From Pseudomonadota bacterium (GTDB lineage: Bacteria > Pseudomonadota > Alphaproteobacteria > Paracaedibacterales > JAKBAR01), in the NCBI GenBank assembly GCA_021808925.1, contig JAKBAR010000004.1, positions 1-53,054 on the forward strand: a stretch of 53,054 nt of DNA, given 5' to 3'. Below the pieces are notes generated by a model. That model ran no database searches, was not told the origin of the DNA, and worked only from the letters and a program-made list of their open reading frames with translations. How positions within the stretch are numbered: position 1 is the stretch's first letter; each line of letters opens with the position of its first letter. Shown piece by piece: positions 1-4,736 of this stretch. The position numbers and the translations under genes were made by a program.

Positions 1-472
1 CGGCGGTGGCCAGAATTCAACAGGCGATTGTGAACTTGAAAAAGCAGGTGACGGCGCAGGCCAAGGACCCGAAAAAACAAATGGGGGCGCTGACAGCGTT
101 AATTAATAAGCTGAAGGAGCTGGAGAATGCGGCCCGCTCGGCCAAGGATACGGCCACGGAAGGAAATGCGAAAAAAGAGCAGCAGACCTATCAAACGCAG
201 CTGGATCAGCTGAAAAAAGCCCCGCCGCCCACACAAAAGCCTGGGGCGAATCCGGCGGTGGCCAGAATTCAACAGGCGATTGTGAACTTGAAAAAGCAGG
301 TGACGGCGCAGGCCAAGGACCCGAAAAAACAAATGGGGGCGCTGACAGCGTTAATTAATAAGCTGAAGGAGCTGGAGAACGCGGCCCGCTCGGCCAAGGA
401 TACGGCCACGGAAGGAAATGCGAAAAAAGAGCAGCAGACCTATCAAACGCAGCTGGATCAGCTGAAAAAAGC
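1..472 (+). repeat. Coding direct repeat with 252-bp period (1-220 and 253-472)
   Basis: The copies are identical except gagaatgc/gagaacgc and are separated by a Pro-rich linker (PPPTQKPGANP). Confidence 0.95.
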
Positions 473-1016
473 TGGTCAAAAAGCTGCTGACGATAAAAAG
501 AAAAGGGAGGAGGCTGCCAAGAAAAAGCTCGAGGACGATAAAAAGAAAAGGGAGGAGGCTGCCAAGAAAAAGCTCGAGGACGATAAAAAGAAAAGGGAGG
601 AGGCCGCGAAGAAAGCTGCTGACGATAAAAAGAAAAGGGAGGAGGCCGCGAAGAAAGCTGCTGACGATAAAAAGAAAAGGGAGGAGGCCGCGAAGAAAAA
701 GCTCGAGGACGATAAAAAGAAAAGGGAGGAGGCCGCGAAGAAAAAGCTCGAGGACGATAAAAAGAAAAGGGAGGAGGCCGCGAAGAAAGCTGCTGACGAT
801 AAAAAGAAAAGGGAGCAGGCCGCGAAGAAAGCTGCTGACGATAAAAAGAAAAGGCAGGAGGCTGCTAAAAAAGCTGCTGACGATAAAAAGAAAAGGGAGC
901 AGGCCGCGAAGAAAGCTGCTGACGATAAAAAGAAAAGGGAGGAGGCCGAACGTAAAAGAAAAGCAGCTGCAGCAGAAGCAGCAAGGAAAGCCGCGGCTGC
1001 CAAGAAAAAGAAATAA
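1..1016 (+). CDS. 5'-truncated repetitive K/A/E/D-rich helical protein (84-aa repeats followed by 14/15-aa charged repeats)
   Basis: ORF is open from the window edge. It has two near-identical 84-aa-period units, then 11 DDKKKR-containing units, and ends AAAKKKK-stop. Confidence 0.85.
   Translation, partial: AVARIQQAIVNLKKQVTAQAKDPKKQMGALTALINKLKELENAARSAKDTATEGNAKKEQQTYQTQLDQLKKAPPPTQKPGANPAVARIQQAIVNLKKQVTAQAKDPKKQMGALTALINKLKELENAARSAKDTATEGNAKKEQQTYQTQLDQLKKAGQKAADDKKKREEAAKKKLEDDKKKREEAAKKKLEDDKKKREEAAKKAADDKKKREEAAKKAADDKKKREEAAKKKLEDDKKKREEAAKKKLEDDKKKREEAAKKAADDKKKREQAAKKAADDKKKRQEAAKKAADDKKKREQAAKKAADDKKKREEAERKRKAAAAEAARKAAAAKKKK
473..950 (+). repeat. Coding tandem repeat of 42/45-bp units
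   Basis: 11 units of AAKKAADDKKKREE (42 bp) or AAKKKLEDDKKKREE (45 bp) with invariant core gacgataaaaagaaaagg. Confidence 0.95.
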
Positions 1017-1093: not shown

Positions 1094-2710
1094 ATGTTTT
1101 TTAACGTCCTTGCTCTTTTTTGCTTTTCAAGCTGTCTCGCACTTTACGCAGCCGCTCCTGAGGTTCTACCCCCCTCTGATACACCTCAAACACCCCCTAT
1201 CCAACCTGCACTGAGCACTGCAGAAAATATAAAAAAAATTCTTGACCTTGTCCGCCGAGGTGTTGTTGTCGTAGATGTCAAAACTTACGCCTCAACTGAT
1301 AGTGAAAAACGTTCGGCTTGGACAGGATCCGGCTTCATCGTTTTCATTGACCCCAAAGAGGATTTTGCCATTATCGCTACCAATCGCCATGTTGCAGGCG
1401 ATATGACCGTTAGCACTTATACGATTAAATTTTCAAATGGAACAACAACAACAGCTAAGTTGCTTTATTTTGACCCCCTTTTTGATTTTGCGTTTCTAAA
1501 AATTGAAAAATCGAAGTTGCCTAAAGATGCTATAGCGCTTGAACTGTCTAAACAACCTCTGGAGTTGAACACAAGTGTGTACACCATGGGAAATTCTGCC
1601 AAAGATGAGTTTTCAACCTATAAGTGCACTGTTTTTTCGCTTTATGAGATGCTTGGCCCTTTTGCTGAGCAATCGGTAAAGTTTGCGGGTCTCACAATAC
1701 CCGGAGCCAGTGGATCTCCTGGTTTTGACGAAAACGGCCGCGTTGTCCTTATTGTCTATGGGGGCAAAGGAACCTCCGGTGCAGGACTCCCCATCGCCTA
1801 TATTGCGGATGCTCTGGACTTTTTAAAACAAGGGAAAACACCTCCGCGCCGTACACTCGGCATCGTTCCTCAATATGTGAGCCTTGAGGATATGGTGAAG
1901 GCTGATTTGATTTCTGTTCAAGCCATGCAAGAGTATCTTAATGCGTTCCCCGACGCCAATAATAAAGTGCTTATGATTAATTCACGCCTGCCAGGATATG
2001 ATGCGTTTAAAGCTTTTGAGCCTGGGGATATTCTATGGAAGGTCAATGGCGAATTAATTGGTCCAAAACTCTATGAAATGGACCGGATTGTGAATCATTT
2101 TCCAGCAGACAAGCCCATTGTTGTTTCTTTTTATCGCAAAGGAGAGCTCAAAGATGTTCAGATTCATTCCTATGCACTTTCTCTAGCACCTGCGGAAGCT
2201 ATGATTAATTTTGCCGATGCTGCATGGATTCAAAACAGTGAATTTATTAAACTTTTTCTTGGGTGTGCTGGTGAAGGTGTTTTTATGCTGGGTGTAGGGC
2301 AAACCTCTCCGTTTCGTACTCTTTTTAATGGAGATCTTCCCCCCTTTTTCCTTGATACGCGCATTGTTCAAATGACAGAAATGGATGGAAAGGCCCTTAA
2401 GTCCTTAAAAGATTTAGAGGAGCTTATCCCCACGCTTATGAAAAAAACATACTTTACCGTTAAATATATTGATTTTATGGGGATGATTGGTCTTGGGCTT
2501 TTCACACCAGCCGATCGTGAGGAGCGCCTTGCGGTTGTGAAGTATGAGTCAAAGTTTGATTCGCCTAAGTTCTATCACTTTAATAACCAAACACATGAGT
2601 GGGATACTGTGGATCTCCACGCCCCCGCAAAAACGCCTGAAATTCCCCAGAAAGACTCAAAGGGTTTTATGCCCTCCAGTCCAACAAAAATAGATATTAC
2701 AAAGAAATAG
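1094..2710 (+). CDS. Exported trypsin-like serine protease with PDZ domains (HtrA/Deg clan, Nma111/DEG7-like)
   Basis: Hydrophobic N-terminus. Triad motifs TNRHV (His), DFAFLK (Asp), GASGSP (Ser). PDZ motif GDILWKVNGELI. Confidence 0.85.
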   Translation: MFFNVLALFCFSSCLALYAAAPEVLPPSDTPQTPPIQPALSTAENIKKILDLVRRGVVVVDVKTYASTDSEKRSAWTGSGFIVFIDPKEDFAIIATNRHVAGDMTVSTYTIKFSNGTTTTAKLLYFDPLFDFAFLKIEKSKLPKDAIALELSKQPLELNTSVYTMGNSAKDEFSTYKCTVFSLYEMLGPFAEQSVKFAGLTIPGASGSPGFDENGRVVLIVYGGKGTSGAGLPIAYIADALDFLKQGKTPPRRTLGIVPQYVSLEDMVKADLISVQAMQEYLNAFPDANNKVLMINSRLPGYDAFKAFEPGDILWKVNGELIGPKLYEMDRIVNHFPADKPIVVSFYRKGELKDVQIHSYALSLAPAEAMINFADAAWIQNSEFIKLFLGCAGEGVFMLGVGQTSPFRTLFNGDLPPFFLDTRIVQMTEMDGKALKSLKDLEELIPTLMKKTYFTVKYIDFMGMIGLGLFTPADREERLAVVKYESKFDSPKFYHFNNQTHEWDTVDLHAPAKTPEIPQKDSKGFMPSSPTKIDITKK

Positions 2711-2734
2711 TAAAAAGTGGAGGGGGTCCTTTTT

Positions 2735-3202
2735 TCATAAAATAAGACACCCCCCACTCCAATCTTTAGGGTTATCGATCCCTGTATACCCCTTGAGAGG
2801 ATATTCCTCTGTGGGGTTTTCTTGTCCTGTATAAACAAAGAGTTCCTTGATAAGTTTTGTTTTTTCATTTTTCTCAAGGTTTTGATTTTCACGAATTGAT
2901 TGGTTTAAAAGCGAAAAAAACCAAGTCTTTGTACTTTTTTTAGAATTATGAGCTAAATAAATTTCTGAGAGCTCACGAGAACTCAGCTGGTTCAAGTCTG
3001 TGATCTGTCGCTGATTAAGCTCCTCTTTAAGCGTATTGAGATCACTCGCTCTAATGTAATGGTCCGTGATATCAAAAAACCAATCCGACGTTTTAGTCGA
3101 CGCAAAAGAAAGATCCCCCGTCAAAAAGAAAAAACTCATTATGATAACAATCATCATACAACAAATCCTTTTTGAACATCTCTCAAAACCTATTGTAAGC
3201 AT
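2735..3202 (-). CDS. Hypothetical exported protein with C-terminal CaaX motif (CLIL)
   Basis: Hydrophobic stretch ending SFAS; C-terminus WSGGCLIL-stop. Start uncertain (3202 or 3157). Confidence 0.7.
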   Translation of the reverse strand: MLTIGFERCSKRICCMMIVIIMSFFFLTGDLSFASTKTSDWFFDITDHYIRASDLNTLKEELNQRQITDLNQLSSRELSEIYLAHNSKKSTKTWFFSLLNQSIRENQNLEKNEKTKLIKELFVYTGQENPTEEYPLKGYTGIDNPKDWSGGCLIL

Positions 3203-3247: not shown

Positions 3248-4072
3248 TTAGACACTTGAAGACATTTTCTTTTGACCTTTGGGCAATTGAATCATCTGCA
3301 TCAACGAGGCAAGTTCTTGTTTTGCCGCAACATGGGACATACTCATGGTCATATTATTTTCCCGCATATCCAAAAGTGTGAGACCACTCAAAAAAAGCTC
3401 ACGAAAGATGACACGCTCACCAAAACCAGGAAGAGAGCGAAAACCAATACGCTTTGCAAGTGCTGTGAGTACCTTTTCCATTTCCTCTTTGTTGCGAGAA
3501 TTAAGACTACTAAGACGATTGCGCAACACAATCCAATCGATCGAACCGCCACAGCGAATGGCTTTTTGTTTTTTTTGCTCCCACACCATTTCAGAATAGG
3601 TACTCGGTTTTAAAATATCCAGTGAATCCGCATTCAAGCGCACAAGCATATCAAGGTCGATAAAACTATCGTTCAATGGGGTAATCAGTGTATCCGCAAA
3701 AGAATGGGCGAGCCTGGACAAGTAACTATCACTTCCGGGCGTATCAATAACGATATAGTCCATATCCTTTAATGCCGTCATTACTCCCTCAAAGCGTGCG
3801 GCTTCATCCGCCTCTGCCTCATGACGATCGACAAGATCACTTTTAAAAAGAGGTTTATGCACCGGCAAAGGAAGATCTTGTTCCTTTGCTGCTTTGCGCA
3901 GGCTACGATTTTCCACATACCGCGTCAATGTTCCTTGCCGTGCATCAACATCCACAGAGCCCACAGTATAACCATCCCGAAGAAGGCTTGTAATAAGATG
4001 CATGGACACAGTGGATTTTCCTGTCCCTCCTTTTTCATTCCCTAAAACAATAACGTAAGGTTGCTGGGTCAT
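3248..4072 (-). CDS. mipZ: Division plane positioning ATPase MipZ (ParA-like)
   Basis: VLGNEKGGTGKST deviant Walker A, DVDARQG, IDTPG, TPLNDSFIDLD, ERVIFRELF. Confidence 0.93.
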   Translation of the reverse strand: MTQQPYVIVLGNEKGGTGKSTVSMHLITSLLRDGYTVGSVDVDARQGTLTRYVENRSLRKAAKEQDLPLPVHKPLFKSDLVDRHEAEADEAARFEGVMTALKDMDYIVIDTPGSDSYLSRLAHSFADTLITPLNDSFIDLDMLVRLNADSLDILKPSTYSEMVWEQKKQKAIRCGGSIDWIVLRNRLSSLNSRNKEEMEKVLTALAKRIGFRSLPGFGERVIFRELFLSGLTLLDMRENNMTMSMSHVAAKQELASLMQMIQLPKGQKKMSSSV

Positions 4073-4136: not shown

Positions 4137-4736
4137 TCAGTTGCTAGATCTTTTTTTATCTTTTTTGGTATGTCTTTTGAAGGAGGGACTTGGCCATTCA
4201 TATTGAAAGTCTTTGGCTAAATAATGACGAAAAAGAGAGTAGGATACATCAGTCTTATACCGCTCATTAATATCATTCAAGGCCTCTTGTTGTGTTTTCT
4301 TCATCCACTCTAATGCATCTTTATCCGTTATTTTTTTAGCTTTTTCTTTGTCAGAACTTTTCTCAACAATAAAATTTTTGAGATAATCGATATCATCCTT
4401 AAAAAAATTTATTTGATTTTCTTCCGTTTCTCTGAAGATCTTAAGATCAAACGCTTTATCTCTTTTTAAGCATTTTTTCGTTTTCTTTTTTTTCACAATC
4501 TTCGACTTTTTAAAATCAGAGGATTGTGTCTCGATCTTGGCAGTACAACTGTTGATAAACTTAATCAGTATCTTTGCGGCTTTCTCTATCTCTTCATTTT
4601 CTTTCTCAAGCGTTTGAGGAAAAGCAACTAAATTTCCTACATCTCCTGAGTTGATGTCTAGTTTTTCAGATTTTTCAGAGGCAAAAGCCGTTGTCATTAA
4701 AAAAGAAGAAAGGCTTAATAATGCTATTGTTTTCAT
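4137..4736 (-). CDS. Hypothetical exported Lys-rich protein
   Basis: Signal peptide MKTIALLSLSSFLMTTAFAS; basic clusters KKSKIVKKKKTKK and KRHTKKDKKR. Confidence 0.75.
   Translation of the reverse strand: MKTIALLSLSSFLMTTAFASEKSEKLDINSGDVGNLVAFPQTLEKENEEIEKAAKILIKFINSCTAKIETQSSDFKKSKIVKKKKTKKCLKRDKAFDLKIFRETEENQINFFKDDIDYLKNFIVEKSSDKEKAKKITDKDALEWMKKTQQEALNDINERYKTDVSYSLFRHYLAKDFQYEWPSPSFKRHTKKDKKRSSN

Follow-up and report, generated by a model that had tools for sequence, protein, structure and literature searches.

A predicted exported orphan protein ending in a CaaX box, and a conserved C92/YiiX-like family with the same candidate architecture, in a Holosporales-like alphaproteobacterium

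Results

A putatively exported orphan reading frame with a C-terminal CaaX box

The stretch of DNA analyzed here (53,054 nucleotides, contig JAKBAR010000004.1 of assembly GCA_021808925.1; hereafter the window) carries a small open reading frame (ORF), ORF 2735-3202, between mipZ and a convergent gene for an exported protease (Table 1). The predicted product begins with a segment resembling a Sec-type signal peptide and ends in Cys-Leu-Ile-Leu (CLIL), a CaaX box. The CLIL end is real and non-random, and at least four other, unrelated proteins predicted to be exported also end in a CaaX box in this genome of 1,397,397 bases (71 contigs, 41.7% guanine plus cytosine (GC), 95.8% completeness).

The CaaX boxes of eukaryotic proteins follow a defined grammar, consisting of a Cys at position -4, an aliphatic residue at a2, a last residue that decides between farnesyl and geranylgeranyl, and a second signal upstream in the form of a palmitoylated Cys or a polybasic stretch. 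Leu as the last residue directs the protein to geranylgeranyltransferase I (GGTase-I). The translated ORF ends in GIDNPKDWSGGCLIL, with final residues DNPKDWSGGCLIL followed by the stop codon. The Cys of C152-L-I-L155-stop lies exactly at -4, a2 is Ile and the last residue, at the exact C-terminus, is Leu, in agreement with the grammar when the accepted last residues are those of general background. The amino-terminal sequence is MLTIGFERCSKRICCMMIVIIMSFFFLTGDLSFA followed by STKTSD, with a hydrophobic core CMMIVIIMSFFFL, a c-region TGDLSFA and a predicted cut between A34 and S35. A sequence-only reading of this DNA had claimed a signal-like segment reaching SFAS and a terminal DNPKDWSGGCLIL-stop; both are present in the translation, which confirms the CaaL box and bears out an export-like N-terminus.

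Signal peptides were judged throughout by eye and with a crude home-made heuristic. In ORF 2735-3202 the core of 12-13 residues is followed by S-F-A and, after the predicted cut, S, whichever start is used; the basic n-region (R8, K11 and R12) belongs only to the long form. No Shine-Dalgarno-like sequence was found upstream of the first ATG (3200-3202). The ATG of Met16 (3155-3157) is preceded, 8 nucleotides upstream, by a Shine-Dalgarno-like AAAGGA at 3166-3171, and the sole public gene call, P0002 (140 amino acids), starts there.

The ORF looks coding-like. Its codon log-likelihood was 0.156 per codon, compared with 0.165 +/- 0.106 for accepted ORFs of 100-200 amino acids and -0.09 +/- 0.11 for shadow ORFs, which places it about 2 standard deviations above the latter. 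The only overlapping alternative frame scored -0.157. The GC content of the ORF was 36%, as against 41.7% genome-wide. The region was identical, with zero differences, in contigs from four DNA runs, all of one study and one possibly the source of the assembly, and no variants occurred among them; the stop codon and the tail are thus not an assembly slip.

Table 1. Features of the window and the exported CaaX proteins of the genome (positions without a contig handle are those of the window)
Feature	Position	Strand	Description
Exported trypsin-like protease, weak PDZ match	1094..2710	plus	convergent neighbour; stop 2708-2710
Terminator-like hairpin and U-run	2712..2760	minus	between protease gene stop and ORF 2735-3202; by folding
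Orphan ORF (signal-peptide/CaaX protein 1)	2735..3202	minus	155 amino acids (140 from Met16), CLIL; stop TGA 2735-2737
CaaX box Cys152-Leu-Ile-Leu155	2738..2749	minus	TGT CTT ATT TTA, then TGA
Predicted Sec-type signal peptide	3101..3202	minus	residues 1-34 or 16-34; read from sequence and heuristic
mipZ	3248..4072	minus	PF09140, E = 2.7e-101
C92/YiiX-like gene (signal-peptide/CaaX protein 2)	25287..26081	plus	264 amino acids, permuted papain-type fold, CIIL; ends SCPCPCIIL
Signal-peptide/CaaX protein 3	C65:38724-39875 (= L083:2225-3376)	plus	383 amino acids, CIIL; NIF phosphatase domain
Signal-peptide/CaaX protein 4	C31:12051-12518	minus	155 amino acids, CLIL; tandem with C31:11517-12005
Signal-peptide/CaaX protein 5	C31:11517-12005	minus	162 amino acids, CNIL

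Over-representation of CaaX ends among predicted exported proteins

The frequency of CaaX-like ends was determined in a census of 1457 greedy, non-overlapping ORFs of at least 60 amino acids, covering 89% of the genome. The pattern C-x-[ILVM]-[LFM] stood at the exact C-terminus of 8 of the 1457 ORFs, while shuffling the last 20 residues gave an expectation of 0.85 +/- 0.93. None of 2000 shuffles reached 8, the maximum being 5, and when the pattern was moved 1-15 residues inward it occurred 0-3 times. Cys alone at -4 was not enriched (22/1457; neighbouring positions had 10-25). A Cys with two aliphatic residues after it was seen in 7 cases at -4, as against 0-3 at each of ten other offsets. Furthermore, 5 of the 15 ORFs ending in IL had Cys at -4, and CxIL ended 1 of 3028 shadow ORFs.

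Cys at -4 was found in 11 of 326 signal-peptide-like ORFs and in 11 of the 1131 others (Fisher p = 0.004, a value that, like the other census p-values, is optimistic because the motif classes were set after the data had been seen; the signal-peptide call is crude, and the size of the excess outweighs the p-values). At the other eleven terminal positions of the same 326 ORFs Cys occurred 1-6 times. Five of the eight ORFs ending in C-x-[ILVM]-[LFM] have signal peptides, where about 0.2 would be expected among the 326. The genome-wide enrichment that the sequence-only reading had proposed as a test is therefore present. Two more exported-looking proteins end in CILS and CIVS.

The five proteins showed no similarity to one another by BLASTP at E <= 0.01. 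The possibility of a shared tail carried by a repeated DNA element was considered and ruled out; the codons, the 3' DNA and the flanks differ between the genes. Protein 3, which ends in CHLLFCKGCIIL, combines a lipobox-like FFTGC with a phosphatase domain of the eukaryotic NIF/dullard-like type (PF03031, E = 1.2e-7). Immediately upstream of its gene (C65:37588-38422) are two decayed paralogous fragments, one of them interrupted by an in-frame TAA. The tandem signal-peptide orphans at C31:11517-12518 end in ESWCNIL (162 amino acids) and ESACLIL (155 amino acids); the similar tails suggest that the pair may have come from an old tandem duplication, though BLAST sees no similarity between them. 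Searches of 61 other genomes of the order gave no significant homologue for the orphans C31:11517, C31:12051 or C65:9092; the lowest E values (0.001-0.007) came from unrelated long frames.

The gene at C47:5193-5690 (minus strand; = L086:1194-1691), which ends in TNCIVS, has a further peculiarity. Five tandem CAGCCAA heptamers (upstream, L086:1692-1770) separate its signal peptide, KFRLLFLNLMAFSALSLPTLA followed by SD, from an out-of-frame ATG that has the site AAAGGAAAA. Since one more or two fewer copies would restore the frame, this CaaX protein appears to undergo phase variation by strand slippage.

A C92/YiiX-like family with conserved CaaX ends

The second exported CaaX gene of the window lies between pntB and a histidine phosphatase gene. 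Its distant homologues carry PF05708 (Peptidase_C92), while the protein itself fell below every Pfam threshold. The family profile matched PDB entry 3kw0, a 'cysteine peptidase', with E = 2.5e-5, and the His/Cys motifs WSH...FCSE are invariant in the family. Homologues with signal peptides were found in 4/4 genomes of the window's family and in 8/8 genomes of a second family (families f1 and f8), and 10 of these 12 genomes keep the CaaX end. The ten ends are CPCPCIIL, NCCVLF, CCFGCCTLL, GCCTIL, NCCIIF, GCCILI, KKGKSSCCVIM, GCCTII, GCCTIM and SSCCILL; the two ends that do not have the box are TCCFSLQ and KDQRA. Five of six further distinct database proteins also end in a box (GCCTIL, GCCIIL, KKGKRKWCILF, GCAGCVIL and NGCCVLM), the sixth ending in SKCCFGLQ.

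Cys thus stands at exactly -4 in 15 of 18 distinct proteins that are 27-47% identical to the query. In these boxes Ile or Leu occupies a2 and the protein ends in L, F, M or I; a1 (I, V, T or L) and the residues ahead of the box vary. Most tails have a Cys directly upstream of the box and some have a Lys-rich stretch. Two distant homologues that have no signal peptide have no Cys tail, and remoter signal-peptide paralogues in a third family end in KVCCCSCVQ, which is Cys-rich and not CaaX. Conservation of the motif was therefore found in the C92-like family and not for ORF 2735-3202. The family lends independent support to the class of signal-peptide/CaaX proteins, and the comparison shows what appears to be a selected, old architecture of Sec signal plus CaaX in this bacterial order. 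Judged from its sequences, the C92-like family is the strongest candidate for host prenylation in the lineage.

In a sister genome (G002) the C92-like CaaX gene (L088:193-1179, C53) comes directly after tssG of a type VI secretion system (T6SS; PF06996, E = 3.3e-62) and before glyA, a weak hint of a link between the C92-like family and the T6SS.

Orphan status and predicted structure of ORF 2735-3202

A search of 5.8 billion clusters with ORF 2735-3202 matched only the ORF itself, and no homologue was found in three other genomes of the family. One paralogue occurs in its own genome (C71:30217-30648, E = 8.9e-6, about 28% identity). Only the ORF, its paralogue and P0004 came up when 1.84 billion representatives were searched exhaustively with a profile. 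P0004 was rejected as a homologue; it is an 807-residue tandem-repeat protein with ten short matching stretches, that is, a repeat artefact. The orphan status claimed in the sequence-only reading was borne out by these searches. The paralogue has the same architecture (signal peptide, helical central part, motif EP.E.YP....TG..NP...W..C) and keeps Cys residues near its end.

The only Pfam match of the ORF was iSTAND at 16.9 bits, below the cut-off of 24, NCBIfam gave no match and the best E in a PDB sequence search was 0.12. In the ESM Atlas there was no feature match; the Atlas model had a predicted local distance difference test (pLDDT) score of 0.51, and all template modelling scores were <0.5. 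AlphaFold2, run on a two-sequence alignment, gave a mean pLDDT of 40.3 and a predicted template modelling score of 0.25. The AlphaFold2 model suggests, tentatively, a helical body and an unstructured tail. The mature product is probably about 121 amino acids long and helical, with a flexible acidic-to-glycine tail.

Genomic setting

The relatives of MipZ come from metagenome-assembled genomes labelled Holosporales, Paracaedibacteraceae, Finniella, Odyssella and Caedibacter, and by this sequence comparison the genome is Holosporales/Paracaedibacteraceae-like. In most of 80 related loci galU directly follows mipZ. None of the 80, including the closest (86% MipZ identity), has a counterpart of ORF 2735-3202 downstream of mipZ, and since galU is found there instead, the ORF is a lineage-specific insertion. 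Among the 627 ORFs of these loci none had a CaaL-like end and 4 had Cys at -4.

On the other side of mipZ, the gene at 4137-4736 (minus strand) is also a lineage-specific insertion. It encodes a Lys-rich signal-peptide orphan of 199 amino acids (MKTIALLSLSSFLMTTAFA followed by SEKSE) that ends in KKDKKRSSN and has no Pfam family, so that mipZ has a lineage-specific exported orphan on either side, in a place where galU stands in relatives. At the edge of the window, an open-ended frame (3-1016, plus strand; 337 amino acids in the window) contains a duplicated unit of about 84 amino acids and then many AADDKKKREEAAKK(KLE) repeats. The product is a repeat protein of high charge and matched no family.

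Prenylation enzymes and delivery routes

Neither PPTA repeats nor an Rce1-like/CPBP protease nor ICMT was detected in the genome, which is 95.8% complete, and the control genomes responded to these searches. The Prenyltrans model had no match in the genome, but it had none in any control genome either. Because no bacterial PPTA, Rce1-like or ICMT gene was found, the box, if it is processed, is presumably processed by a eukaryote.

No VirB4-type gene of a type IV secretion system was found in the genome. It encodes a GspE/PilB-type ATPase with an MshEN domain, located among housekeeping genes, one secretin, two TolC-like proteins, a T6SS sheath gene and one FHIPEP protein whose match fits either a flagellar or a type III secretion system. 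The earlier contrast with type III and type IV substrates, drawn from the Sec-type signal of ORF 2735-3202, applies to each of the five proteins and to the C92-like family. Passages of PMC8163844 describe a Paracaedibacter-like symbiont, close in genome size and GC content, that lives unenclosed in the cytoplasm of its host and has Sec, a T6SS and a large number of secreted hypothetical proteins unique to it. For a bacterium that had no vacuole, like such relatives in the protist cytoplasm, crossing the outer membrane would suffice to meet the host prenyltransferases.

Discussion

The explanation that we favour, at about even chances, is that ORF 2735-3202 encodes a Sec-exported effector that would be geranylgeranylated by the host and anchored to its membranes. 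The confidence that may be placed in host prenylation of the C92-like family is clearly higher. In the proposed sequence of events, the Sec translocon would export the pre-protein and signal peptidase would cut after LSFA. The mature protein would then leave the bacterium, for which the GspE/PilB-type ATPase, the secretin, the TolC-like proteins and the T6SS are candidate routes. By the textbook rule for a last Leu, cytosolic GGTase-I of the host would attach the lipid to Cys152, host Rce1 would trim and ICMT would methylate the C-terminal end, and the lipidated protein would be anchored to host membranes. The export signal and the motif are read from the sequence; release, lipidation and membrane localization of this product are inferred.

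Several observations weigh against this proposal. The only homologue of the ORF, its paralogue, ends in GWCTHILSLSCMPFF and has no CaaX box. The sequence-only reading had named homologues lacking the Cys as a result that would speak against it; the paralogue has Cys near its end, and the missing box counts against ORF 2735-3202 individually. No orthologues were found in the three family genomes, the 5.8 billion clusters or the 1.84 billion representatives. The short form of the protein does not have the basic n-region, and the signal peptide call is a heuristic one. Codons 148-155 (WSGGCLIL) and the stop lie inside the 5' arm and loop of a strong RNA hairpin. A cleavable Sec signal would place the protein in the periplasm and not in the host cytosol, and the host of this bacterium may not possess GGTase-I.

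The class as a whole is also open to objection. Two to three of the eight C-x-[ILVM]-[LFM] ends fall in cytoplasmic housekeeping proteins or dubious ORFs. Outside the signal-peptide set the end CKVL belongs to a nitroreductase, CTVF to a ribosomal protein of the S8-like type and the third end to a doubtful ORF of 92 amino acids; these are the background expected by chance or from housekeeping proteins. A CaaL-like end is conserved in the nitroreductase, a housekeeping protein, so that such an end alone is no proof. Three of the 18 C92-like proteins do not have the box, and the G001 orthologue of the NIF phosphatase ends in KSLF with no Cys tail. In the sister genome G002, of which 724,934 bases (about 56%) with 723 ORFs were sampled, only the C92-like gene and the nitroreductase carry the end. 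No further signal-peptide/CaaL orphans were found in that sample; as far as sampled, the set of CaaX orphans is specific to the present genome.

The nitroreductase-family protein (C6:1027-1608, plus strand) is cytoplasmic and has no signal peptide; it ends in DVCKVL, and its G002 counterpart (L119:7951-8532) ends in DVCTIL.

The possibility was considered that the ORF encodes an ordinary exported orphan in which CLIL is a functionless by-product of a bidirectional terminator between convergent genes, the G-rich stem giving W-S-G-G and the AT-rich loop L-I-L-stop. The sequence at 2714-2760 folds at -23.5 kcal/mol (z = -2.7; 2 of 200 shuffled sequences were as stable) and is followed by a U-run; it was revealed by folding, and a simple terminator scan with a loop limit of 8 did not list it. 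The hairpin is likely a terminator common to the ORF and the convergent protease gene. Since the last eight codons lie within it, WSGG-CLIL could reflect RNA structure and not protein function. This view also fits the different and longer tail of the paralogue, the absence of orthologues that could show constraint, and the housekeeping ends CKVL, CTIL and CTVF, which can arise by chance or structure. However, it does not account for five CaaX ends among signal-peptide-like ORFs where about 0.2 are expected. The tails of the other four genes lie outside terminators, and the one clear hairpin, at C31:11517, is about 25 nucleotides past the stop. Moreover, the paralogue alignment reaches the W...C of the tail, which indicates that this stretch is coding sequence of the family. 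A by-product of the terminator is consequently an unlikely explanation, although it is the most serious of those that compete with host prenylation.

Alternatively, the Cys-hydrophobic end could be a bacterial signal, such as a ligand for a periplasmic PDZ protease or other quality control, an outer-membrane export tag, or a Cys-rich metal-binding or disulfide tail. Every carrier has a Sec signal, and the periplasm is therefore the first compartment in which the tail is exposed. PDZ domains classically bind hydrophobic C-termini, and the convergent neighbour of the ORF is HtrA-like, with trypsin-like and weak PDZ matches. Some C92-like members have Cys-rich tails that are not CaaX boxes (CCFGLQ, CCFSLQ and CCCSCVQ). 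Nevertheless, a Cys at exactly -4, freedom at a1, an aliphatic residue at a2, a final L, F, M or I and an upstream Cys or Lys-rich stretch constitute the eukaryotic grammar of prenylation plus a second signal, and to our knowledge the conserved layout matches no bacterial tag. In the bacterial C-terminal sorting signals known to us, those of the sortase, exosortase and rhombosortase types, a transmembrane helix is part of the signal, and the present tails have none. The searches turned up neither a CPBP/Rce1-like gene nor ICMT, and the other CaaX genes do not adjoin PDZ proteases. A bacterial signal is accordingly improbable.

That ORF 2735-3202 is not a gene at all, and merely a chance frame in the AT-rich stretch between mipZ and the protease gene, would fit its lack of homologues outside the genome, its low GC content, a first ATG with no Shine-Dalgarno sequence and the absence of any RNA run among the matches listed, but is very hard to credit given a codon score typical of real small genes and 2 standard deviations over shadow ORFs, a paralogue of the same architecture elsewhere in the genome, a Shine-Dalgarno-like site before Met16, a terminator after the stop and a negative score for the sole overlapping alternative frame.

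Host prenylation of Sec-exported proteins can be compared with several known systems. The candidates share the C-terminal grammar of Ras/Rho-type CaaX proteins, and the C92-like tails show both types of second signal. They differ from them in being bacterial, in having N-terminal export signals and in having no GTPase domain; the tail of ORF 2735-3202, moreover, has no Cys within 10 residues upstream of the box and no polybasic stretch. Salmonella SifA has a CaaX-type end plus a nearby acylated Cys. SifA and GtgE resemble the present proteins in their CaaX-type ends, and the C92-like family likewise mostly pairs the box with an upstream Cys. However, the Salmonella proteins are type III substrates of a vacuolar animal pathogen, have no signal peptide and have unrelated folds.

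The Legionella AnkB and Pel proteins are similar in that an intracellular bacterium of protists makes proteins ending in CaaX, which in their case are lipidated and anchored by host prenyltransferase, Rce1 and ICMT. In contrast, they are Dot/Icm type IV substrates that have no Sec signals, whereas here every candidate has a Sec-like signal and no VirB4-type gene was found. The present organism is a Holosporales-like alphaproteobacterium, and its proteins have no sequence similarity to those of Legionella. The YiiX/YaeF proteins (PF05708, 3kw0) are related to the C92-like family only and not to ORF 2735-3202; the Holosporales-like subfamily adds the signal peptide and the CaaX tail.

Passages of PMC2916131 describe host prenylation of Legionella AnkB as established and report CaaX proteins found in silico in 20 pathogens and one endosymbiont. 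Host prenylation is also reported for Legionella PelC/PelE (PMC13081727) and for Salmonella GtgE, the membrane association of which is enhanced by its CaaX motif (PMC13423502). In the passages concerned, a Wolbachia preprint that mentions CaaX refers to host genes (10.1101/174375). No literature joining CaaX with Holosporales, or prenylation with Caedibacter, was found in the library searched (Supplementary Table S1 of PMC2916131, which possibly lists endosymbiont proteins, lay outside the search). None of the ten top-ranked matches of a broader search dealt with Sec-dependent secreted CaaX proteins of endosymbionts combined with host prenylation. Host prenylation of bacterial proteins is thus known, and what would be new is its pairing with Sec signal peptides in a new lineage.

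A wider scheme may be offered tentatively, with less than even confidence. The Holosporales-like order would release proteins by the general Sec pathway and not by an injection machine, and the host would prenylate and probably palmitoylate them. The C92-like enzyme would be the ancient member of the set, its CaaX end kept across two families, while single species would keep adding CaaX ends to young orphans; the tail of ORF 2735-3202 was perhaps recruited from the terminator loop. The lipobox NIF phosphatase, which ends in CIIL, could tether the bacterial surface to host membranes.

We know of no effector biology for this lineage. So far host prenylation has been known from a handful of effectors that Legionella and Salmonella inject; here the tag is consistently paired with Sec signals. 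The pairing is seen in one enzyme family of ancient conservation and in several young orphans, ORF 2735-3202 among them. If the proposal is true, a signal peptide together with a CaaX box would be a cheap sequence rule for recognizing host-targeted proteins in uncultured protist symbionts, and the small proteins described here would make a tractable set for tests in amoebae or yeast. They would also be evidence that proteins routed through the periplasm reach the host cytosol.

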